Positions 4,511-50,589 are shown, counted from the first letter of the stretch. The stretch is DNA of 64,000 nucleotides from Acidobacteriota bacterium (GCA_003222675.1 QHWT01000068.1:7969-71968), one strand, 5' to 3'. The notes: generated from the letters alone by a model not told the origin. Made by a program: numbers and translations.

Positions 4511-7500
4511 ATGAAGCGTGCCGTCGCTTGGTCGGCTGTCTTTGCGATTCTGCTTTCCGCTGGACTCAATGGACAGGCGCCGCACGCAGGTCGGAGTGCG
4601 CCGCTTCAACCTGGCCCAAACGTGAACGCGGTCGGCGGCGTTGCCAATCCGCACGATCCCGCCGCCCTCGTGAAGGCCGACCTGAACCAACAGCGGCAGA
4701 ACGAGACGGTTGCCGCGGCGTCGACACGCAATCCCGATCACATCCTCGCGGCCGCGAACGATTATCGGTTCGTTGATTTTCCTGAGGATCAGTTCTTCGG
4801 CGGAACGCAGAACTTTCTCTCGCGATTGATCGCGCGCCTCGTCGGCAGGCCGATGCGGCATGTTCCGGCGAGGACGGCTGCCGCGGTCGGCGCGTGGACC
4901 GGAGTGTACAGATCGTGCGATCGCGGCCGCACGTGGATCGGCAGCGCAGTCCCCGGCAGCGCCTTGGATTTTTCGGACGCGTCGAACAACTCCGCGCTCA
5001 AGCGCCTCACGGAGAGCGCCGAACTCCAAGGCGGCCATGCGGAGACAACCGACCCCGTGCTCGTCGCCGGACCCGGCGGACGGATGCATCTCGCCGTCCT
5101 GGGATTCGTGCGTTTCGCCGGCGGCAGCGTCGGCGACAGCCGGATGTATTACGTCAGCTACACGGACCGGAACAACCGCGAAGGCGGAACGTGCTTCAAC
5201 TACGACTTCATGCGCGAGATCGATTCGGCGGCGGCGTATGCGTCGATCGCCGCGCCGAATGCTGAAGGCCCATTCATCGACAAACCGACGATCGCGGTCG
5301 ATAAGGACGGGACGTTGTATGTCGCATACACGGTGTTCAACGACACGGTGAAGAGCCGGATCGTCGTCGCGCGATCGTCGGACGGTGGCGCGACCTGGAA
5401 GAAAACGATCCCGCTGCTGAACGCGGGATTCCTTCGTAATCATGGCGCCGCGCTCACCGTGGATCCGCTGAACGGCACCGTCTATCTCGCGTGGCGCATG
5501 TTCTTCGACAACTGGCCGCTGATGGTGATCTCGCGATCATTCGATCGCGGCCGCACGTTCCTGCCGGCCACGCCGATCTCGCACTTCTGGCCGGCGCGCG
5601 GCGTGGACAAGATCATCGATCAGTTGAAAGCCGCCAGGCTTCAGCCATACGACCAGTTCTCCGCGGGACAGAACGATCCCGTCGACCTGAGATTCCGGAC
5701 GGCTACCGCCCGATCACTCGCGTTCCCCACCATCGTCGCGGGCGTCGTGAACGGCCGATCGAAGGTGTTCGCGGCATGGGTCGAGCGTGCGGATGTGACG
5801 CCGGGTTCCATGACGTTCGGCCAGCCAAGCGCGACCGGCAGCCCTCGCATCATGTTTTCCATGTCGGACAACGGCATCACCTTTACACCGCGCCGCGCCA
5901 TCGACGCGGCGCCGCGGCGGGAGAACCTCTTTCAAGTGGGGGTCGGCTCGATGCTGACGCGGCCATCAGGCCCGCAGGTCCAGCCGGTCCTGACCATGAG
6001 CGGCACCACGAACGGTCAACTGCTGCTGATGTACTACGAGAGCCGCGATGAGCTCGACGCCGTCACTCAGTCCATCAGCGGCCTCGAACGCGTGTTGGAC
6101 GTGCGCGCGCTGCGCATCGATCCGAGCACGGGCGAGCCGCTTGCCCCTTCCGTGCAGGTGTCGCAGTACCCCGTCGTGACGAATTCGTCTCCTGTGACGC
6201 TGCCGGAAACCGCGCCGGGCTATCGGATGGCAAACCGTCAGAACCTCACGATGTACAGCGGCGGCTTCGCCGCGTTCTTTGGTGATTACGCGCACCTCAG
6301 CCCCTCGCGGCCGTTCGAGTTCAAAGCAGGAGAGTGGACGTGGACGTCGGAGGCAAGCCCGTCGCTCGCGATCTGGACCGACAACCGCGACGTTGCCTTT
6401 CCCTTGAACGCAGAGGGACGCGTGGACATCAGCCGCGACTGGACGAAGTACATGCCGATCGTACCGACCGATTCGATGGCCACATTGCCACCGGACTGCA
6501 CGTTCGTGTCGAGCCGCAACTCGAACCCGTACTTCACCGAAATCGGCGGCATCATTGCCGGCGCGCCGCAATCGTTCAAACCGCTGACGATTCAGCGCGC
6601 GTTTGCCACCTATGTCGAGAACCGCACGCCGGACGATCGCTTCTTCAGGCTGACGATTCAGGACGATGAAGCGCGGGGGATTGACGGATCTTTCGACCAG
6701 TTCGATTTCGGTGCCGGGAGCGACGTGCGCAACGTGAAGATTTTCGGCCACTCGAGCCATCACCGCACGATTTGGGTTCAACCGCGGCCGCAAGCACCAA
6801 CCGCGTCGTTGTCGATGCTCGTGCAGGAAACGACGACGCTCGGTGGCGTGCTGAAGGCCGACGGCTACGTCGCCCGCGTCGTGATCAACCCGGATCCGAA
6901 CAACGATGCGCTGACCACGGTTCCGGCCACGGCGCCGCAATTCGCAGGAGACCCGACGATCACCGCGGATAATTCCGAGCTGCACAACCCGCAGATCTCT
7001 TCGCCGCAGATCTCGACGTTCCGCGTGACGGCGCCGCAGATCTCGAGCCCGCAGATCTCGTCGCCCCAGATCTCGAGCCCGCAGATCTCGACGCCGCAAA
7101 TCTCCAGTCCGCAGATCTCGACCCCGCAGATTTCCTCACCGCAGATCTCGACCCCGCAGATCAGCACCGCGCCGCCCGACGAAGGAAACGGCACCGACGT
7201 GACCTATACCGTCACCAACCAGGGGACGACGTGGACGACGTACGAGGCGTTGTTCAACGTGCCGGGAGTAACCAATCTCATCGGAAGCGGCAACTATCAG
7301 TTCCAGGTCTTGATCACACGCACCAGCCTGGTGCCAGCGTTCCTGCAGACCGCGAAGGGCTGCGAGCCCGCGGCCAGGACCGAGGTGCAGGTCATCGCCA
7401 ACATTCCGGTCCCGCAGATTTCGTCGCCGCAGATTGCGACGCTCTCGAACCCGCAGATCTCGACGCCGCAGATCTCGACACCGCAGATTGCGACGTTTTC

Positions 7501-42260: not shown

Positions 42261-45200
42261 TCAGCTCAGTAGCACCTCCAGGTCCTCCCTCTTCAACTCG
42301 CGCAGCAAGCCGGCGTCCGCGTGCAGGATCGCGTCGGCGAGATCGCGCTTGGTGGCCTGGAGCTCGGCGATCTTTTCCTCGACGGTGTTTACCGCGATGA
42401 GTCGATACGCGAACACATGGCGCGTCTGGCCGATCCGATGCGCGCGATCGATGGCCTGCGCCTCCACGGCGGGGTTCCACCATGGATCCAGCAGGAAGAC
42501 GTACTCGGCCGCGGTGAGATTGAGGCCGAGGCCTCCCGCCTTCAGGCTGATGAGGAACAGCCGGCAGTCGGGATCGGTCTGAAACCGGTGAACGCGCGCC
42601 TCGCGATCGCGCGTCTGGCCGTCGAGATATTCGTACGGCGCGCCATCTTCGTCGAGCCGCGTGCGCAAGAGCGCGAGCAGACTGGTGAACTGCGAGAAGA
42701 CCAGGCACTTGTGCCCCTCGTCACGAACCTCGCCGAGCAGCGGCAGCAGCGCCTCGAACTTCGCCGACGGCGCACCGGCGCGGCGCGGGTCCACGAGCGC
42801 GGTGTGACACGCCGCCTGCCGCAGCCGCAGCAGCGCCTCGAGGATGTGCATCCTGGATTTGGCCAGGCCGTCGCGTTCGATCCGGTGCAGCAGCGTCGCC
42901 CGGTAGTGCGCGCGCAGCTCGTCGTACATCTCGCGCTGCATCCCCTGCAGCTCGCAGTGGAGCGTCAGCTCCGTGCGCGCCGGCAGTTCCGGCGCGACCT
43001 GCGCCTTCGTGCGGCGCAGGATGAACGGCCGCAGGCCCCGCGCGAGCAGCTCCATCGCTGCCGGATCGCGCCTCGAGGCGGCGACGCTGTGTTTCGCGAA
43101 CGTCGAAGAGGTGCCGAGGAGTCCAGGATTGAGGAACTCGAACAGACTCCACAATTCGCCGAGATGGTTCTCGACCGGCGTGCCACTCAAGGCCAGGCGA
43201 TACGACGCTTGCAGCAGCCGCGCGGCCTTGGCGCTCGCGGTCGACGCGTTCTTGATGGCCTGCGCCTCGTCGAGGATGACGTACTCGAACACCGTCTCCT
43301 TCAACCGGATGGCGTCGCGGCGCATCGCGCCGTATGTCGTGACGACGAGATCGTACTTCTGAAGATCCTCCATCGAGCGTGCCGCGCCGCTGAAGTCGAG
43401 CACGCGCAGCTTCGGCGCGAAGCGCGCCGCCTCTTCCTTCCAGTTGAAGACCACCGATCGCGGGACGACCACGAGCGACGGCGCAATCTTCCTGCGCTCA
43501 CGACGCAGGCGGTCGAGCCATGCCAGCACCATGACGGTCTTACCGAGGCCCATGTCGTCGGCGAGGCAGCCTCCGACGTTGAATCGCCGGAGGAACGCGA
43601 ACCAGCCGAGCGCGTCGCGCTGGTAATCGCGCAGCTGACCGGCAAATGACGGGGCGGCATCGAGCGCGCCGATGCCGCTGAAGGTCGCGAGCTGTTCGCG
43701 CGTGCGGGCGAATCGTTCGTCGACGCGGATCGCCGGCTGCGACGCGAGCGCCGCGTCGAGGAGCGCGACCTGCGACACCTTGAACCGCACGTGATCGCCG
43801 GAGACTTCGCCCATTCCCGCGATCCCGCTCCACCGCCGCAGCCACTCCTCCGGCACGATACCCACTGTGCCATCGTCCAGGGTAATGGTCGCGTCGCCGT
43901 GCGCGCGATCCGCGAGCAGCCGCGGCAGCGGCACGAACTTGCCGTCGCCGAAGTCAACCGAGCCGTGGAGCTCGAACCAGTCGACGCCGGAGCGGATCTC
44001 CGAGCGCATCGACTGCGCCGTGCGGAACGTGCGCCCTTCGGCTTCGACGCGCCAGCCTTCGCGAATCAGCACGCGCATCGCGCTCGAGAACTGGTCCGCG
44101 CCGATCCAGAGGTGCTGGCGCGCGACCATGTAATCCCAATGGCGTGAAAATCCCAGCTGCGACAGTCGTGTGAGCGCCGTCTGCTCGAACGCAGGATCAC
44201 GCCGAATCAACCGGCGTCGATCCGGATCGAATGCAGTGGTCGCGGTGCCTGGCGCGACGCGCAGCCCGCCGTAGTCGAAGGTGACCTCCGCGTCGAGCAT
44301 CGGCATGGGGCCGCGCCGCGCGCCGGGCGTGACGCTGACGCAGGCCTGCGGCGACTCCGACGCGATCTCGAATCGCAGTTCTTCCGGCAGGTCGAGCGGA
44401 TCGATTCCGGAGCGCGCGAGCACATCCACGAGACGGCCGGTCGCGTCGGACGGGATCACCGCCGGGCCAGACCGGCGAAGCTGCGCGAGCCAGGCAAAGG
44501 CGCCGCGTGCATCGAGACGCGCGACCGTTCCGCCGTGGAAGACGTAACCGTCGATCAGCATCCACGGCTCACGGATCGCGAGCCGGTCGTGGCCGCGCAG
44601 GAGCGCCCCGTCGATCGAAAACGATTCGTTCCCCGAGCCGTGGACGATCTCCAGGTGAAACGTCCACGGCGGCCCGGCGTCCCATGCGATCGGGACGATC
44701 TCTTCACCGGGCTGCGGCCGCGCACGAAGCAGCGCCCGTCCTGACTGCGCCACCAGCGGCAACACGCGATCGACGAGCGGTCCCGCGAGCCGGAACGACG
44801 CGCGTCCGTACTGGCTGAGATACGACGTGGTGTACGGATCGGATGCGCCGAGGAGCAGCGGCACGATCTCGCGATCGACCGCGTCGGGCAGTTGTGCGAT
44901 TTCGGAGGGTGAGACGGAGGTCGGCTTCGGCTTCGCCCAGTCGCCGTTCTTCTTCCTCTGCCGTGACTGCACGTCGAGCGCGAGGCCGGTGCCGTTCAAC
45001 GTCGCCGCGCGATCGATCACGTACACAAGCTGCGCCGCCGCGAATCGCGCCGGTGGCCGCGCCGCATCCGCCTCCGTCAGGCTCTGGGAGAACTCATCGA
45101 GAAACCGTTCCCATGCGGGGTGCCTCCGCGCGCCATCCGCGTCCGCATGACGAAATGGCCGGCGACGAAATTCGGGATCCATGACGTCGCCGTTGTCGGA

Positions 45201-45521
45201 CGCTTCCAGCACCGCATCCCGCGGTACGTCGCCCTCGCCGAGGAGCAGCTTTCGCCGCTCGGCCTCAAGCATCGCGGCCCAGATATGCTTGCAGACGACG
45301 AAGCGGTCCTCGAAGTACGGACACTCGCACGAACCAGAGAAGGTTTCAGTCTCGCGGCGGATCGTGACGTGATAGTCGCGCGAGCCGCGGACGGTCGCCT
45401 CGACGGACCAGGCGTCTCCCGCGATGCGCGTGACGGCGCCGTCGAGAAAGTACGCGCGTCCCTTGACGCGGCTTCCTCCCGGCACCGTTGCGGCAAGGAC
45501 CTGGGTGAGCGTGACGCTCAT
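42261..45521 (-). CDS. SWIM zinc finger / SNF2-family helicase
   Basis: CECP..CKH SWIM; LRDYQ, LADDMGLGKT, DEAQ, LSGTPVEN, FSQF, SLKAGGLGLNL, WWNP, DRAHRIGQ. Confidence 0.95.
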   Translation of the reverse strand: MSVTLTQVLAATVPGGSRVKGRAYFLDGAVTRIAGDAWSVEATVRGSRDYHVTIRRETETFSGSCECPYFEDRFVVCKHIWAAMLEAERRKLLLGEGDVPRDAVLEASDNGDVMDPEFRRRPFRHADADGARRHPAWERFLDEFSQSLTEADAARPPARFAAAQLVYVIDRAATLNGTGLALDVQSRQRKKNGDWAKPKPTSVSPSEIAQLPDAVDREIVPLLLGASDPYTTSYLSQYGRASFRLAGPLVDRVLPLVAQSGRALLRARPQPGEEIVPIAWDAGPPWTFHLEIVHGSGNESFSIDGALLRGHDRLAIREPWMLIDGYVFHGGTVARLDARGAFAWLAQLRRSGPAVIPSDATGRLVDVLARSGIDPLDLPEELRFEIASESPQACVSVTPGARRGPMPMLDAEVTFDYGGLRVAPGTATTAFDPDRRRLIRRDPAFEQTALTRLSQLGFSRHWDYMVARQHLWIGADQFSSAMRVLIREGWRVEAEGRTFRTAQSMRSEIRSGVDWFELHGSVDFGDGKFVPLPRLLADRAHGDATITLDDGTVGIVPEEWLRRWSGIAGMGEVSGDHVRFKVSQVALLDAALASQPAIRVDERFARTREQLATFSGIGALDAAPSFAGQLRDYQRDALGWFAFLRRFNVGGCLADDMGLGKTVMVLAWLDRLRRERRKIAPSLVVVPRSVVFNWKEEAARFAPKLRVLDFSGAARSMEDLQKYDLVVTTYGAMRRDAIRLKETVFEYVILDEAQAIKNASTASAKAARLLQASYRLALSGTPVENHLGELWSLFEFLNPGLLGTSSTFAKHSVAASRRDPAAMELLARGLRPFILRRTKAQVAPELPARTELTLHCELQGMQREMYDELRAHYRATLLHRIERDGLAKSRMHILEALLRLRQAACHTALVDPRRAGAPSAKFEALLPLLGEVRDEGHKCLVFSQFTSLLALLRTRLDEDGAPYEYLDGQTRDREARVHRFQTDPDCRLFLISLKAGGLGLNLTAAEYVFLLDPWWNPAVEAQAIDRAHRIGQTRHVFAYRLIAVNTVEEKIAELQATKRDLADAILHADAGLLRELKREDLEVLLS

Positions 45522-45568
45522 TCCTGAACCTTAACATCTCGCCGCTCGTGATAGCATCCGCGCGGCAA

Positions 45569-46900
45569 ATGCCCGTCGCGCCGCCCGTGGCCTCACCCTC
45601 ATCGCGCGCGCTCGGATTCTGGACCGCCGTTGCGCTCGTGATGGGCAACATGATTGGGTCCGGCGTCTTCCTCCTTCCAGCATCGCTCGCCCCGTACGGC
45701 GGCATCAGCCTGATCGGCTGGTGCGTGTCGGCCGCGGGATCGGTGCTGCTCGCGCTGGTCTTCGCGCGGCTCGCGGGGTTCAATCCGGCAGCCGGCGGAC
45801 CGTACGCGTACACACGCCAGGCGTTTGGCGATTTCGCCGGGTTTCTCGTCGCGTGGGGCTACTGGATCTCCGTATGGACCACGGAAGCCGCGCTCGCCGT
45901 CGCGCTGGTCGGCTACCTCGATCCCTTTTTCCCGTCGATGGTGCGCGCGCCCGCGTCGGCCGCGGCGCTCGCGATCGGCCTCGTGTGGCTGCTGACGGGC
46001 CTCAACGTGATCGGCATCCGCATCGCGGGTCGCGTGCAGCTCGTGACAACCGTGCTCAAGATCGTTCCGCTCGTCGTGATCGGCATCGGCGGACTGTTTG
46101 CGATCAACACGTCACACTTTGCGATCGCCGCAACCGGCGCCGATCAATTTGTCAGGACCGTCTCGACGACCGCCACACTGACGCTCTGGGCGTTTCTCGG
46201 GCTGGAGTGCGCGACGATTCCCGCCGACAGCATCGAGGCGCCGCAGCGGACGATTCCGCGCGCCACGGTGACCGGCACCCTGCTGACCGGCGCGATCTAC
46301 ATCATCAGTACTGTCGGCGTCATGGGCGTGCTTGCGCCGTCCGCCCTTGGCGCCTCTACCGCACCGTACTCCGACGCCGCGCGAGTTCTCATGGGGCCCG
46401 CGGAGGCCGCCTTCATCGCGCTCGGCGCCGCCATCTCCTGTTTCGGCGCGCTGAACGGCTGGATACTCGTTGTGGGCCAGCTGCCGCTTGCCGTCGCGCA
46501 GGACGGACTTTTCCCGCGCGTGTTCGGCAGGCTCTCGAGCCGCGGCACGCCGGCGCTCGGCATGGTGATCGCCGCGGTCCTGGCGAGCGGCCTGATCGCG
46601 ATGAACTTCACGCGCTCTCTGGTGCAGCTCTTTACGTACATCATCCTGCTCGCGACGCTCAGCACGCTCATCCCGTACGCGTTCTGCTCGCTCGCAGGGT
46701 TCATGCTTGCCGGCCAGTCGCACACGATGCGCATGACCCGCGCGACCGTTGGCATCGCGATCCTCGCATTCGCGTACTCCGTCTACGCCATTGCCGGCGC
46801 CGGAGCGGACGTCGTGTATTCCGGGTTCATCCTGTTGATTTGCGGCCTCCCCGTCTACGTGTGGGTCGCGGGCGAGAGGCCGTGGAGACCTTCTCACTGA
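45569..46900 (+). CDS. APC-family amino acid permease
   Basis: GNMIGSGVFLLP, GGPYAY, WAFLGLEC, about 12 TM helices; start 45548 or 45569. Confidence 0.9.
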   Translation: MPVAPPVASPSSRALGFWTAVALVMGNMIGSGVFLLPASLAPYGGISLIGWCVSAAGSVLLALVFARLAGFNPAAGGPYAYTRQAFGDFAGFLVAWGYWISVWTTEAALAVALVGYLDPFFPSMVRAPASAAALAIGLVWLLTGLNVIGIRIAGRVQLVTTVLKIVPLVVIGIGGLFAINTSHFAIAATGADQFVRTVSTTATLTLWAFLGLECATIPADSIEAPQRTIPRATVTGTLLTGAIYIISTVGVMGVLAPSALGASTAPYSDAARVLMGPAEAAFIALGAAISCFGALNGWILVVGQLPLAVAQDGLFPRVFGRLSSRGTPALGMVIAAVLASGLIAMNFTRSLVQLFTYIILLATLSTLIPYAFCSLAGFMLAGQSHTMRMTRATVGIAILAFAYSVYAIAGAGADVVYSGFILLICGLPVYVWVAGERPWRPSH

Positions 46901-47008
46901 GAGGCCAGGGACAGTCTCATCGGAGAGGACCGGAGAGGACTTTTTGGAAGTAATTCCTCCGTGGCCTCTGAGTAAAGTCCTCGGTAGTGTCTGAATCGTG
47001 CGTTGGTC

Positions 47009-47845
47009 CTACTCGGCAGGCGGAAGGCGTTTCCGTTTTCCGGCGGGCTTGTCCAGTTTCGTGAATTCCTTCGCAGTCTGCTTGAGATTTTTACGTACGT
47101 CTTTGATGTCGCTGGTGAGGGGGATGCGCTCGGGTGGGGTGCAATCGCTGTCGATCATGATCTTCCGCACTTGCTTCCCAACCTGGAACGCGACGGTTTC
47201 GGCCGGAGCCTGACCGTAGACCTGATCTGATCGGAGTCGGGCCTCAGTTTCAGTGAAGCGGAACAAATTGCCAGCCAGCTCCCGCTTGTCCATGAAGTCC
47301 AGCAGTGTTCGCCCCTCTGGAACGCCCTTCGCCGCCTTCAGCCTACCCAGATGCATGTTGTACATGCCGCGATAACCGGCGTTGTGAAACAGGGCAAAAT
47401 CACCGACGCCAGCCTTCTTCGCCGTGCTCATGAGGCTTTTGTCGCGCTCTGAGATCTCATCGCGAATCTGCACGCGCTCGACATCATGGGAAGCTTGCAT
47501 GTACTGCCGCGCGGCTTCCGCCAACGTCGCGAAGTACGCTTGAGCGGCAGCAACGGCAGGCTTCCGCACGTCGCCGTTCATGGCAATCAGATAGCAAGCA
47601 AATCGCGATAACCTGTAGTCGCGGACCCCTTCAACGTCCACCTGTTGGAAATTCTCGACGACAGGAATGCTGAGCGTCGTGCATGTACCGATGGCACGAT
47701 TGATGGCCTGCTCGAATGCGGCGTAGCTCTCGTATCCTAACATCGCCATGAACTCGCTGGCGTACCAATAGGTGCCGCCGTTGGGTTGACCACGGCCCTC
47801 GAATGCGGTGCCGTCAGGCTCGAAAAGCGCGATACTGTCGGCCAT
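47009..47845 (-). CDS. DinD-like / Bro-N family protein (transposon cargo)
   Basis: YWYASEFM.MLGY..F..AINRA, DYRLSRFACYLIAMNGD.RK..VAAAQAYFA, FHNAGYRGMY, ELAGNLFR.T.TE. Confidence 0.8.
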   Translation of the reverse strand: MADSIALFEPDGTAFEGRGQPNGGTYWYASEFMAMLGYESYAAFEQAINRAIGTCTTLSIPVVENFQQVDVEGVRDYRLSRFACYLIAMNGDVRKPAVAAAQAYFATLAEAARQYMQASHDVERVQIRDEISERDKSLMSTAKKAGVGDFALFHNAGYRGMYNMHLGRLKAAKGVPEGRTLLDFMDKRELAGNLFRFTETEARLRSDQVYGQAPAETVAFQVGKQVRKIMIDSDCTPPERIPLTSDIKDVRKNLKQTAKEFTKLDKPAGKRKRLPPAE

Positions 47846-47942
47846 CGTTTTCACCCTTCGCCTTGCTGGCGCGGAGATGGTTGAGAGGGACACAGTTTAC
47901 CAAACCAGCGAGGCGCCGTGGCGGCGAAACGGCGATCTGGCC

Positions 47943-48926
47943 TCACGCGGACCCGAGCAATTCGCGCAGGGTCCAGATATGATCCGTGACCCCGCATTCC
48001 ATTCCCGGTGTCACCCGCAGCGACCGATGTACCCGACAGAAGTTGTAGTACGCGAAGTGTAGCGCCAAGGCAGCATGGAGATGCTCCCACTTCTTGCTGT
48101 ACGCGTAGGTCAGCCGCGTCAGCCGCTTGCACCACTGGCGCAGCGAGCCGTTCTTCCGTTCAACATGCGACGTGCTGGCCCGGTCAAGGTCGGGCATTCC
48201 CGTCACCGCATCCTTCGCAACCGAGACGAACCGCGCCGGACTGTAGCGCTCGCGTCCGTGCTCAACGTGGTGCGAGAACAGCTTCACTATCTGGCTGTGG
48301 TTCGCACGGTCGAAGAGCCCGCCGTCAATCGCGCGCTCGTACGGCGCGAACGCGTCCGTGCTCACGTCAAACAGACGATCCGCGCTCGTCGCGTGGCGCA
48401 CCTTGGCAATGAACTGCTCCGTGTTCTCAAGATTCCGCTTGCCGAGGTGCCACGCCATCACCATCTTGGTTCGTTCTTCCAACGCGATGAACGTGTACTG
48501 ATCGCCGCGCAGGTGCGACTGTTCGTCGTCGTAATTAACGAAACGCTGATGGCAACCGACGTAGCTCCAAACCTCATCGAGTTCCAGGTGCGCCACTGGC
48601 ACGTTCGTAATGCGCGCCGTCATCAACCGTTCGCAGCGCTCGCCCGCCAGCACTAGCAACCGCATGATCGTGTTCCGGTCGATTCCACAGATGCGCTCGG
48701 TGCTTCGGATCGAATTGCCTTCGACCAACAATTGAAGCGCGAGCAAGCCCTTCTGCTCGTCTACCGTCATTGCGCCGAACAGACGCCGGTGCGCTTCGGT
48801 GCGGGTCTTGCCGCAGGCCGAGCACCGGAACCGGCGCAGCCCGTTACGCTGTTTACCGTAACGGACGGACGGGCCACCACATGAGTGGCAACCGGGCAAC
48901 CGCGTATGAGGCTGTTGGGCAATCAT
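47943..48926 (-). CDS. IS1-family transposase, single ORF
   Basis: CxxC..GK..G.RRFRCxxC zinc ribbon, EGNSIRSTER HTH, ELDEVWSYVG, STD, STSHVERKN DDE core. Confidence 0.9.
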   Translation of the reverse strand: MIAQQPHTRLPGCHSCGGPSVRYGKQRNGLRRFRCSACGKTRTEAHRRLFGAMTVDEQKGLLALQLLVEGNSIRSTERICGIDRNTIMRLLVLAGERCERLMTARITNVPVAHLELDEVWSYVGCHQRFVNYDDEQSHLRGDQYTFIALEERTKMVMAWHLGKRNLENTEQFIAKVRHATSADRLFDVSTDAFAPYERAIDGGLFDRANHSQIVKLFSHHVEHGRERYSPARFVSVAKDAVTGMPDLDRASTSHVERKNGSLRQWCKRLTRLTYAYSKKWEHLHAALALHFAYYNFCRVHRSLRVTPGMECGVTDHIWTLRELLGSA

Positions 48927-48934
48927 GATGAGAC

Positions 48935-48963
48935 ATTATGAGCCTAGGCGCCTAAGCTGGCAA
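48935..48963 (-). promoter_or_regulatory. sigma70 promoter of the transposase with a palindromic site as its spacer
   Basis: TTGCCA-GCTTAGGCGCCTAGGCT(17 nt)-CATAAT, ending 8 nt before the ATG (near-leaderless). Confidence 0.7.
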
Positions 48964-49050
48964 GTCTAATCGGGCACTATGCCCAAAAATTTCATGCGGA
49001 TTGTTGCGTCGTGTCCCGTCCGTGCTAATATGCCAGAGTCAGGAGGCATT

Positions 49051-49863
49051 ATGGCCAGTCACGAAGCTGTAGACGTTGAAGGCGCGGAAGGTGTCGAGGG
49101 TGTCGAGGAGCCGGGCCGGTCCACCATTCGGTTCCCGTACGCGGATCAGGATGCTGCGATCCGTGTCGCTAGGGGAGTCCACCACTTCGGAACGAGTTGT
49201 ACCCTAGCCCAACTTGCGGCACAGCTCGGCGGTATGACGGTGAACGGCGGCGGGTTCAGGCAAATGGTATCGGCTGCGCAAATCTTTGGCTTGATCACGC
49301 TTGCTCGGCAGACCGTGACGCTGACCGTCCTCGGCCAGCGAATCAACGACCCCGACCAGGAGAAGGCGGCGCGAGCCGAGTCCTTCCTGGCGGTGCCGCT
49401 TTACCGTGAGGTGTTCGACCGCTTCGCGGAGGCCGGAGGTAAGCTGCCGCCGCAGGCTGGGCTGGAAGCCGAGATGGTCAGGCTTGGGGTCTTGCCCAAG
49501 ATTGTAGACCGTGCCCGACAAGTCTTCCAGCGGTCAGCGCAACTGGCCGGATTCCTCGCGTTCGGCCCGGACAAGCTCGTGATGCCCGCGACTGGCGGGG
49601 GCACTCCCAGGGTTGACCCAGCGGGAGGCAAGAAGGACGAACAGCGCCATCGCAACGGTGGCAGCGGAGGCGATGGTGGCGATCTAGATCCTGTTCTTCA
49701 TGCGCTGCTGCGGAAACTGCCTGACACCAAGCAGCCGTGGCCCACAGAACGACGCGCCAAGTGGCTCCGGATGGCCGCCAACGCGCTGGACATGATGTAT
49801 CCGGACGATGACAGCGGGAACGAACTCACAATCGCTGTGAGTCCGAAGAAAGCGTCTGCTTAA
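49051..49863 (+). CDS. hypothetical protein, probable winged-helix DNA-binding (transposon cargo)
   Basis: AGGAGG RBS then ATG 49051; FPY..AI..A, LAAQLG..GGFR..SAAQIFGLI..LT.LG; Gly-rich linker; C-terminal LLRKLP..W..R.KWL. Confidence 0.7.
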   Translation: MASHEAVDVEGAEGVEGVEEPGRSTIRFPYADQDAAIRVARGVHHFGTSCTLAQLAAQLGGMTVNGGGFRQMVSAAQIFGLITLARQTVTLTVLGQRINDPDQEKAARAESFLAVPLYREVFDRFAEAGGKLPPQAGLEAEMVRLGVLPKIVDRARQVFQRSAQLAGFLAFGPDKLVMPATGGGTPRVDPAGGKKDEQRHRNGGSGGDGGDLDPVLHALLRKLPDTKQPWPTERRAKWLRMAANALDMMYPDDDSGNELTIAVSPKKASA

Positions 49864-49913
49864 TGAGAAACGCCCGCAAGCAGAACGGGCGTTTCAGAGA
49901 GGAGGTGCCCGAT

Positions 49914-50048
49914 GTGGGCAACGGGACCGTAAGCATTCGGTTCTCGGCCACGTGCATCACGATCACTATTGGCGTAGGGGACGTGATTGTCGTGGTCGAA
50001 ATACCATTACACGACGCTAGCTGCTACCTCCACGGCGTGAGGCGTTAG
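49914..50048 (+). CDS. putative 44-aa hydrophobic peptide
   Basis: AGGAGGT 7 nt before GTG; ITITIGVGDVIVVVEIP. Confidence 0.35.
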   Translation: MGNGTVSIRFSATCITITIGVGDVIVVVEIPLHDASCYLHGVRR

Positions 50049-50274
50049 CCTCTGCCTCTTTCTTCAACCGAGCCTTCGCTTGGCGGGCTAGGCCAGCCTT
50101 CCGAGCGATGGCGCTGCGCTGTTCCGGCGCGAGCTTCTGGGCGCGTATTGTGCCGCCCTTCGAGCCTCCCAGCTTTCCAAGCGCGACTGCCATCGGATTC
50201 TTCATCCGAACAGGGGTCGGGAAGGAGATGACCTCCGCAGGCTCTGCCGGCTTTAAGCTTAGGCGCCTAGGCAC
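50017..50274 (-). CDS. small basic KGG-motif ('histone H1-like') protein
   Basis: KNPMAVALGKLGGSKGG..RAQKL.PEQRSAIARKAGLAR; start GTG 50274 or ATG 50205. Confidence 0.72.
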   Translation of the reverse strand: MPRRLSLKPAEPAEVISFPTPVRMKNPMAVALGKLGGSKGGTIRAQKLAPEQRSAIARKAGLARQAKARLKKEAEANASRRGGSS

Positions 50275-50291
50275 AAACCAGTATCGCAGAT

Positions 50292-50477
50292 TCAGTGAGG
50301 CTTTTCCACTTCACGCTTCTTCTGCACGATCATGTCGTCCGTGAGCACAAGCGCCGCTCGGAGCAATTCTAAACTCCGCGCTGTCCGGTTCTCCGGCAAT
50401 GGCGTGGTTGTGGAGATGAGCGTTTCGACCTCTGCGATCATGTTCCGCAGGGCCGTTAACGATGCGCGATCCGTCAT
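50292..50477 (-). CDS. small helical hypothetical protein inside the right transposon end
   Basis: 61-aa ORF MTDRASLTALRNMIAEVETL..SLELLRAALVL, co-oriented with the KGG gene and transposase. Confidence 0.5.
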   Translation of the reverse strand: MTDRASLTALRNMIAEVETLISTTTPLPENRTARSLELLRAALVLTDDMIVQKKREVEKPH

Positions 50478-50589
50478 GCTCTGACGGTAGTACGTCGCGG
50501 TGGTTCGCGCAAGAGGCGACCAACGCATCATTCAGACACTACCAAGTCCTCCGTGGCCCTGGACCGAATACCGGGTACAATGGCTCCCC

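Follow-up and report, generated by a model that had tools for sequence, protein, structure and literature searches.

A 3561-bp element separates the gene of an amino-acid permease (45548-46900) from that of a histidine kinase (from 50500) in a stretch of 64,000 nucleotides from an Acidobacteriota bacterium (GCA_003222675.1, QHWT01000068.1:7969-71968). We refer to this whole stretch as the window, and coordinates are counted from its first letter. The element is bounded by terminal inverted repeats (TIRs), is flanked by a perfect 8-bp duplication, and encodes an IS1-family transposase together with other open reading frames (ORFs). Taken together, the observations described here make it very probable that this is an intact transporter insertion sequence (IS) of the IS1 family, that is, a small unit transposon with a fixed backbone, a conserved accessory module and two slots. 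An earlier note, made from the sequence alone, had already described an intact IS1-family transposon with an internal transposase and extra genes inside its TIRs, and the family scores, TIRs and conserved residues given below bear this description out.

Ends, transposase and insertion site

The two 26-bp TIRs read GGTAGTGTCTGAAT[CG/GA]TGCGTTGGTC and match at 24 of 26 positions; these repeats, the perfect duplication of AAGTCCTC and the length of the element were as the earlier note had reported them, both on reading the sequence and with a repeat finder. The two mismatches fall at positions 15-16, between the boxes GGTAGTG and TGCGTTG. Both boxes are kept in relatives of the element, and the two mismatch positions also vary between the relatives' ends. 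We searched the whole 7.16-Mb assembly (152 contigs) with the TIR pattern, allowing at most 3 mismatches and using the reversed pattern as a control. Only the two ends of the element were found, one per strand, and the control gave 0 matches; the element is single-copy in its genome. Its GC content is 57-64%, versus 65-70% in the flanks. It is therefore barely credible that the TIRs and the 8-bp repeat are a product of chance, or the ends of two elements forming a composite transposon: nothing beyond the two TIR mismatches favors this, whereas the pattern is unique in 7.16 Mb with no control match, the same TIR family bounds 52 relatives (see below), and only one transposase gene lies between the ends.

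The transposase is encoded by one ORF, without the insA/insB' frameshift of classical IS1. It matches the Pfam family DDE_Tnp_IS1 (PF03400) at 32.4 bits, above the cut-off of 24.1, and the NCBIfam model transpos_IS1 over profile positions 1-184 of 199, at 97.8 bits (E 7.6e-28; cut-off 100). The IS1/IS1595 zinc-binding domain NF050000 scored 25.4 bits, under its cut-off of 28, and residues 63-91 gave a weak match to the Pfam helix-turn-helix (HTH) family HTH_28. No IS1595 transposase model was matched in the Pfam or NCBIfam scans, in both of which IS1 was best, and the protein is not placed in IS1595 by these scans. The zinc-ribbon residues C13, C16, C35 and C38 are present and are conserved in 49-50 of 51 aligned homologues, while D117, D191 and E256, and after them R257, N259 and R263, show no variation among the 51 and are likewise all present here. 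A database search returned 5308 homologues at E <=0.001, and the named proteins among the best 120 are called 'IS1 family transposase' (NCBI or JGI). Within the genome the only other transposase relative is a second IS1-like ORF of 285 aa (L002; G000 contig C4:165855-166643), 36% identical, which is without the N-terminal zinc ribbon and around which no GGTAGTG-type TIRs were found. These two genome searches, with the TIR and with the transposase, had been proposed in the earlier note.

The 8-bp duplication shows that the element entered the permease/histidine-kinase spacer by a staggered cut. Using the permease flank, we fetched the loci of the seven best relatives. In four of the seven (three from the same genus, G001, G002 and G003, plus G023) the kinase gene comes directly after that of the permease, with no 3.5-kb insert. 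The kinase-proximal flank, including its TACAAT box, is conserved in the relatives' loci. Because relatives have the two genes adjacent without the element, the insertion is lineage-specific. From this comparison of gene order, the claim that the element was recently inserted is borne out only on the scale of other species in the same genus.

The target region also contains a 15-nt near-repeat, AATTCCTCCGTGGCC at 46952-46966 and AAGTCCTCCGTGGCC at 50544-50558. In the uninterrupted site the starts of the two copies would lie 23 bp apart, just upstream of the kinase-gene TACAAT box; they may be sites for a regulator, with the element landed within the second copy. Just upstream of the permease gene is a 1086-aa ORF (42261-45521, minus strand) that, judged by eye from its translation, is SNF2-type helicase-like. 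Features of the element are collected in Table 1.

Table 1. Features of the element and its immediate borders, in window coordinates
Feature	Position	Strand	Basis or remark
Whole element, 3561 bp	46983-50543		between two TIRs, 8-bp duplication outside
Target-site duplication, left copy, AAGTCCTC	46975-46982	.	same as 50544-50551
TIR, transposase-downstream end, GGTAGTGTCTGAATCGTGCGTTGGTC	46983-47008	+	24/26 vs other end
DinD-like/Bro-N protein, 278 aa from ATG 47845	47009-47845	-	frame open to 47893; downstream-slot cargo
Single-ORF IS1-family DDE transposase, 327 aa	47943-48926	-	Pfam, NCBIfam, conserved residues
Promoter-like TTGCCA-17-CATAAT	48935-48963	-	directly upstream of transposase ATG; sigma-70-like, 10/12
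Palindrome AGCTTAGGCGCCTAGGCT	48939-48958	.	the promoter's 17-nt spacer; repeat pair, repeat finder
p270, 270-aa middle-slot gene	49051-49863	+	divergent from transposase; predicted N-terminal winged helix-turn-helix (wHTH) plus helical domain
Hairpin GCCCG...CGGGC then T-run, terminator-like	49871-49887	-	just past p270 stop; flagged by scan
p44, small conserved ORF, 44 aa	49914-50048	+	GTG start 8 nt after GGAGG
KGG-motif ORF, 85 aa, counterpart of fused-C1 C-terminal tail	50017-50274	-	synteny, hhalign
Second palindrome copy, AGCTTAGGCGCCTAGG	50256-50275	.	overlaps KGG start codon
p79, N-terminal helical domain of C1, 79-aa ORF	50292-50531	-	adjoins upstream TIR; likely real start M19 at 50477
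TIR, transposase-upstream end	50518-50543	-	24/26 vs other end
Target-site duplication, right copy, AAGTCCTC	50544-50551	.	same as 46975-46982

Backbone and slots in related elements

We scanned one genome per species for relatives of the transposase, which gave 445 loci, and kept the best 80. Almost all of these come from metagenome-assembled genomes (MAGs) of Acidobacteriota. Transposase identity is 76-85% in Vicinamibacterales and 45-57% in Bryobacterales, Terriglobia and Pyrinomonadaceae, and the closest relative (L005) is 85% identical. To delimit elements, we searched up to 5.2 kb to each side of the gene for inverted ends of the GGTAGTG type, a pair requiring at least 17/24 matches. Such pairs were found in 52 of the 80 loci, with a perfect 8-bp duplication in 39, a perfect 9-bp duplication in 4 and neither in 9; many of the 28 loci with no pair end close to a contig edge. 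TIR-bounded cargo in homologues, which the earlier note had proposed to look for, is thus found in these 52, of which 43 have a perfect 8- or 9-bp duplication. The delimited elements run from 2275 to 6789 bp (median 3316), and consequently no bare IS is among the 52. The transposase has 782-3434 bp of the element upstream of it and 18-4001 bp downstream, the latter being below 100 bp in 11 elements and at least 500 bp in 32.

Comparison of closely related elements separates constant from variable parts. Two elements of one MAG (L025 and L033) have in common the TIR together with C1, the accessory gene described below (96%), and the transposase segment (89%), but neither the DNA of the middle gene nor the downstream cargo. 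The pairs L043/L044 and L024/L053 follow the same pattern, alike in backbone and different in the slots. On this comparison, backbone and slots evolve separately. We infer a family backbone that would consist, in order, of the upstream TIR, C1, a variable middle slot, the transposase, a variable downstream slot and the other TIR. The two variable slots that had been suggested for the window's element are therefore seen as slot variation among the 52 delimited relatives.

Four identical copies of 2571 bp (L034, L039, L040 and L041) occur in one MAG, on two contigs; L040 alone has matching duplications (AGGCTGAG on both sides), and the other three pair AGGCTGAG with CAAGGAGT, as expected if recombination between copies had given rise to inversions or rearrangements. 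Three of the nine elements without a duplication are copies from one MAG whose duplications are swapped between copies. The L005 element lies inside a tandem array of GGTTCCAAG(G/A)G units (L005:2516-2561 and 6615-6742), and its duplication, TCCAAGGG, is part of the repeat. Nested ISs occupy the downstream slot at L013:5989-7335 and L047:8166-9107, one of IS5/DDE_Tnp_1 type and the other of IS3/rve type, and account for the largest element (6789 bp).

These relatives also bear on whether the window's element is a fixed relic that no longer moves, its predicted wHTH regulator and DinD-like protein now serving the host. The element is single-copy, no second insertion site of the exact element was found, and even L005 is only 85% identical in its transposase, all of which would fit a relic. 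We nevertheless consider this unlikely, given the perfect duplication, TIRs that match at 24/26 with mismatches at positions varying in relatives too, the full set of conserved transposase residues, and relatives present in multiple copies within one MAG (L034, L039, L040 and L041; also L025 and L033).

In the window, the downstream slot holds the DinD-like gene. This gene starts 97 nt past the transposase stop on the same strand, and is probably co-transcribed with the transposase; its stop codon (47009-47011) adjoins the inner end of the TIR, as the earlier note had observed. The protein aligns over nearly its full length with the NCBIfam model DinD (NF008573) at 194.8 bits, under the equivalog cut-off of 242, and also matches Pfam Bro-N (26 bits), phrog_8036 (1.4e-83) and the PADLOC candidate family PDC-S13 (2.2e-82, 274.5 bits, positions 13-276 of 281). 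From these matches it is a candidate anti-phage gene. No homologue of it was found in the 80 related loci; the same slot in L007 carries a gene also labelled PDC-S13, which matches a different model and has no pairwise similarity to that of the window.

For the relatives we scanned 144 naively called ORFs of at least 100 aa, transposases being excluded and the duplicates in L039-L041 dropped from a set of 147. Pfam matches in this cargo include an N6/N4 methylase beside a DndB-like protein, HNH nucleases, XRE-HTH proteins with or without an M78 peptidase, P63C, a ParA-like ATPase, Rap1a, DUF1643, DUF2513, DUF6414, DUF4258 beside an MqsA-like HTH, and the two nested ISs; RosmerTA-like genes are also present. 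PADLOC models are matched by 14 of the 144, in 12 elements, at E <=1e-5 (PDC-S13, MTase_II, DpdB, PD-Lambda-2_B, RmrA, HNH, PDC-S45, capH, HTH_VI and three weak PDC-M matches); most ORFs match nothing. As to the suggestion that the slots may carry stress or anti-phage genes, part of the cargo is defence-like, through these 14 ORFs and the PDC-S13 match in the window. Two relatives contain a tRNA. That of the element L068:3360-6334 (L068:3843-3928, minus strand; Rfam 58 bits) has a long variable arm and the ochre-suppressor anticodon UUA, which would read the stop codon UAA, and that of the element L007:3222-7033 (L007:4793-4865, plus strand; Rfam 57 bits) was called Ser(ACU) by ARAGORN.

The middle slot is the variable region between C1 and the transposase. 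Grouping the genes that lie closest to the transposase on its upstream side in the 52 elements gave 8 clusters (of 10, 10, 5, 3, 2, 2, 2 and 2 members) and 16 singletons. In the window this slot holds p270 and a 44-aa ORF, p44. The p270 family is one of the two 10-member clusters and has at least 125 homologues, all 'hypothetical'. No sequence family was matched in Pfam or NCBIfam, and a Foldseek search of the PDB gave nothing that reached E 0.001. In a VIA search with the structural model of p270 (pLDDT, a model confidence score, of 84), residues 30-109 (model residues 33-101) resemble a MarR-type wHTH (Z 9.6, root-mean-square deviation 1.8 over 64 residues), and residues 22-189 resemble BrxA (Z 7.8); BrxA and an uncharacterised Magnetospirillum protein span Z 7.8-8.7. 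The fold makes p270 a candidate MarR-like winged-helix DNA binder. A relationship to DUF5343, found in the middle gene of L017, was rejected (hhalign E 0.064, probability <1%). The nearest Atlas cluster with any Pfam family (0.87) has DUF5343 on a third of its members, which we take as a lead only.

Past the p270 stop, the stem of the terminator-like hairpin is conserved in L005, L006 and L010. The spacer from the p270 stop to the KGG stop (49866-50016) is ~95% identical to that of L005, versus ~70% for the neighboring genes. The window, L005, L006 and L010 each have a Shine-Dalgarno sequence followed by a 39-44-codon ORF, with a residue pattern common to all four, and this conserved p44 appears to account for part of the spacer conservation, better than an RNA does. 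As an RNA the spacer was tried and rejected: Rfam gave only a chance-level match elsewhere in the element, ARAGORN found no tRNA in the window, folding z-scores were -1.6 to -2.0, and the covariation term of the alignment fold, in which an unrelated L068 sequence (a tRNA) was included, was -0.32 kcal/mol. A long imperfect hairpin is present at ~49944-49996 within this convergent spacer.

The gene content on the transposase-upstream side differs in several respects from that first described. The 270-aa gene exists, with its start at 49051 rather than 48979. A 61-aa ORF had been proposed where the 44-aa gene, preceded by GGAGG and conserved in four close elements, is more likely; the first 17 codons of the longer frame span the post-p270 hairpin and are conserved in neither L006 nor L010. 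As for the 'putative peptide' MWATGP, it is a mini-ORF of 6 codons after GGAGG that overlaps the start of p44, which begins two bases on. Finally, four ORFs had been listed on this side, and a fifth, p79, had been missed.

The accessory protein C1 and candidate operators

We traced the C1 family over 81 loci by tblastn and then by profile search. It is present in 50 of the 81, in every case 840-2400 nt upstream of the transposase gene and on its strand. Of the delimited elements 41 bear it, and in 39 of these its start is 13-83 nt from the end of the element. In most elements C1 is one protein of ~98 aa, with a p79-like helical N-terminal domain and a basic tail of the form GxKGGxxTAxR...GGRPRK. 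Six elements (the window's, L005, L006, L010, L068 and L072) have C1 split into p79 and a KGG ORF, and in all six the KGG ORF comes after p79. The window's KGG ORF gave a weak hhalign match to the fused tail motif GxKGGxxTAxR (E 0.009 over 22 columns); this alignment and the synteny support its identification as the probable counterpart of the C1 tail. The p79 and KGG ORFs are conserved family genes and not cargo, so that the KGG protein noted earlier stands as an ORF and loses its status as cargo. A programmed -1 frameshift from p79 into KGG, comparable to that of IS1 insA/insB', was considered for the A AAG site in the window's 17-nt overlap, and was rejected because the offsets differ among the six split elements (2, 1, 2, 0, 1 and 1) and the two ORFs are ~380 bp apart in L005.

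The C1 family has at least 1760 members, none of them named and none with a Pfam domain. Neither Pfam nor Atlas, where only unnamed clusters were matched, provided a usable name for p79/C1. The p79 model is a three-helix fold (a hairpin; pLDDT 80); the best PDB matches, neither of them usable, were a designed helical protein by sequence profile (E 0.051) and an E of 0.42 by Foldseek. We also predicted the complex of the window's transposase with p79, using unpaired custom alignments. The score was 0.63 (runs 0.58, 0.69 and 0.63), versus 0.01 for the best of 3 controls; the partner pLDDT was at least 81, and agreement between runs covered at least 100% of the contacts of the smaller set. In the tool's calibration, which applies only roughly since custom alignments were used, this mark is reached by 116 of 157 solved complexes and by 2 of 215 mismatched pairs. 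The predicted interface comprises p79 residues 47-66, beside the nearly invariant P46, R49 and L57, and, on the transposase, residues 61-79, where the HTH region begins, and 297-322, among them the invariant W318. We know of no solved complex of an IS1 transposase, and a sequence-profile search of the PDB found no solved p79 complex; it is therefore unlikely that the score stems from model memory. The prediction supports binding of p79 to the transposase.

Alternatively, the transposase alone could be the machinery, with every other gene, including the KGG and 79-aa ORFs, interchangeable cargo. None of these other ORFs matches a known transposition protein family, and the middle and downstream genes vary widely. 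The alternative is nonetheless very unlikely: in 50 of 81 loci p79/C1 is found at one position and on one strand, with transposases that are only 45-55% identical, the C1 segment is 96% identical where slots differ, C1 is predicted to bind the transposase, and the KGG ORF matches the tail of fused C1.

The promoter-like site directly upstream of the transposase is the sole match in the region and falls within the 124-bp spacer between the divergent transposase and p270 genes. Of the palindrome that makes up its 17-nt spacer, 16 nt recur in inverted orientation over the KGG start (16/16, versus a shuffle maximum of 14). Related motifs occur at both corresponding sites in L005 and L072. The palindrome takes the form AGCTTAGGCGCCTAAGCT in the window's element and ACAGCAAGCGCTTGCTGT in the other clade. 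In 20 other elements the best match (at least 14/16) of the 150 nt upstream of the transposase is a palindrome resembling ACAGCAAGCGCTTGCTGT; it lies at element positions 27-50, immediately past the upstream TIR and before C1. By score, 14/16 is within the shuffle range, and it is the constant position that makes these matches non-random. We infer that a dimeric, element-encoded binder couples the C1/KGG and transposase promoters. Inversion of the segment between the two palindromes found no support, as the element has no recombinase gene and the sites are nearly self-symmetric.

By its fold and the gene layout, p270 is the best candidate for the palindrome binder in the window. There is a considerable chance, somewhat short of even, that p270 is instead a passenger, for example a DNA-sensing defence component, and that the transposase or C1 binds the palindromes. 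The p270 family is common, also outside these elements; its Atlas neighbors, by features or structure, include clusters auto-named for an Mrr-like N-terminal domain and one with a TIR protein domain; the BrxA-like similarity reaches Z 7.8; and the same palindrome occurs with many middle genes in other clades. On the other side, p270 and the transposase gene diverge from a common 124-bp spacer that contains the palindrome, an arrangement usual for autoregulated repressors, the window and L005 have in common both the p270 family and this particular palindrome, and dimers of MarR-type wHTH proteins bind palindromes of this kind.

Together, these observations suggest how the element may work. The transposase would bind the GGTAGTG...TGCGTTG ends and move everything in between. 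C1/p79 would dock on the HTH region and C-terminus of the transposase and modulate it, either as an inhibitor or as a cofactor that tethers DNA through its basic KGG/GGRPRK tail. A dimeric DNA binder encoded by the element, with p270 the best candidate, would occupy the palindrome in the promoter spacer and its copy at the KGG start, and this occupancy would keep transposase expression low. The slots, finally, might be reloaded through recombination between related elements.

Comparison with known elements

Some of the evidence weighs against this picture. The transpos_IS1 score is 2 bits under the curated cut-off. The element is single-copy, and where relatives have an empty site their flanking gene shows an identity of only 77-79%, at which the spacer could not be aligned and the exact empty-site sequence was not recovered; of the empty site sought in relatives, gene adjacency is thus found and the exact junction is not. 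C1 is absent from 12 of 53 delimited elements, and so is not essential to the whole transposase clade, and its predicted contact with the transposase, through p79, comes from unpaired custom alignments. Some of the 'cargo' ORFs are spurious, because ORFs were called naively in high-GC DNA. As to regulation, the promoter scan expects 0.9 chance matches in the region, and palindrome site 2 overlaps conserved coding sequence (VPRRLS). The ACAGC...GCTGT palindrome accompanies many different middle-gene families, which speaks against the middle gene as the binder in those clades; there it may be C1 or the transposase.

Classical IS1 of E. coli is ~0.77 kb long, with insA and insB' joined by a -1 frameshift and no passenger genes, and IS1-family ends are described in ISfinder as GGnnnTG with duplications of 8-9 bp. 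The elements described here share with this family the DDE_Tnp_IS1 domain, the N-terminal zinc ribbon and HTH, the 8-9-bp duplications, and ends (GGTAGTG) that fit GGnnnTG. Unlike classical IS1, the window's element is 3.6 kb long, has a single-ORF transposase 1.6 kb from one end and carries five further ORFs inside its TIRs, among them passenger genes and the separate, conserved accessory gene C1. IS1 InsA and the Tn5 inhibitor protein are examples of small proteins by which an element restrains its transposase. C1 resembles these in being small, encoded by the end of the element and a proposed modulator of the transposase, with operator-like palindromes at the element's own promoters; unlike them, it is not a truncated or N-terminal transposase, has no zinc ribbon or HTH, and matches no known family.

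Transporter ISs (tIS) were reportedly first defined by Siguier, Gagnevin and Chandler in 2009, for the IS1595 family. The window's element has what characterises them: one transposase, TIRs and a duplication, plus genes unrelated to transposition (DinD-like, p270). It differs from the IS1595 tIS in that its transposase scores as IS1, the zinc domain NF050000 being the only match in common. The ISfinder IS1 subgroup ISMhu11, with lengths to ~4.6 kb, may overlap this kind of element; a full-text literature search for the name ISMhu11 found no paper. The window's downstream cargo resembles E. coli DinD and PDC-S13 in its near-full-length match and Bro-N domain, and differs from DinD in scoring under the equivalog cut-off; PDC-S13 is itself only a candidate defence family.

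In the part of the literature surveyed, ISs with passenger genes are an established category present in several IS families (2021 IS6 review), and Tn7-like transposons carry variable cargo, with defence systems and further mobile elements among it (Benler et al. 2021, PMC8649781). As far as those accounts go, our elements resemble Tn7-like transposons in their variable, transposon-bounded cargo with defence-type genes. They differ in having one IS1 DDE protein in place of TnsABC and target selectors, a capacity of only 1-4 kb, and duplications that show no evident site-specific targeting.

Our literature searches on IS1-family elements with passengers or cargo, which covered sources other than ISfinder and its key 2009 and 2015 papers, found no description of an architecture with a conserved accessory gene and two slots. 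The transporter-IS kind itself is known; what appears to be new is the detail, namely a backbone common to the family, a predicted partner of the transposase and the pattern of operators. A cargo-carrying IS is thus not new as a category; within the sources covered, a conserved helper and two slots in IS1 look new. We tentatively propose, as a possibility somewhat short of even, a large and undescribed IS1-family lineage, mainly of Acidobacteriota, with a fixed backbone, two cassette slots, a ~98-aa transposase-binding family of at least 1760 members without known relatives, and palindromic operators, whose slots shuffle candidate defence, toxin-antitoxin and regulator genes and, in two relatives, tRNAs.

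If this is true, a branch of the textbook minimal IS1 would be a regulated cargo carrier with its own partner protein, and the transporter-IS idea would extend past the families in which the literature we surveyed places it. It would also give a testable role to at least 1760 unannotated proteins of ~98 aa. Delimitation by TIR and duplication would offer a simple way to harvest small cargo genes, many without a known function and some of them defence-like, from poorly studied soil bacteria.

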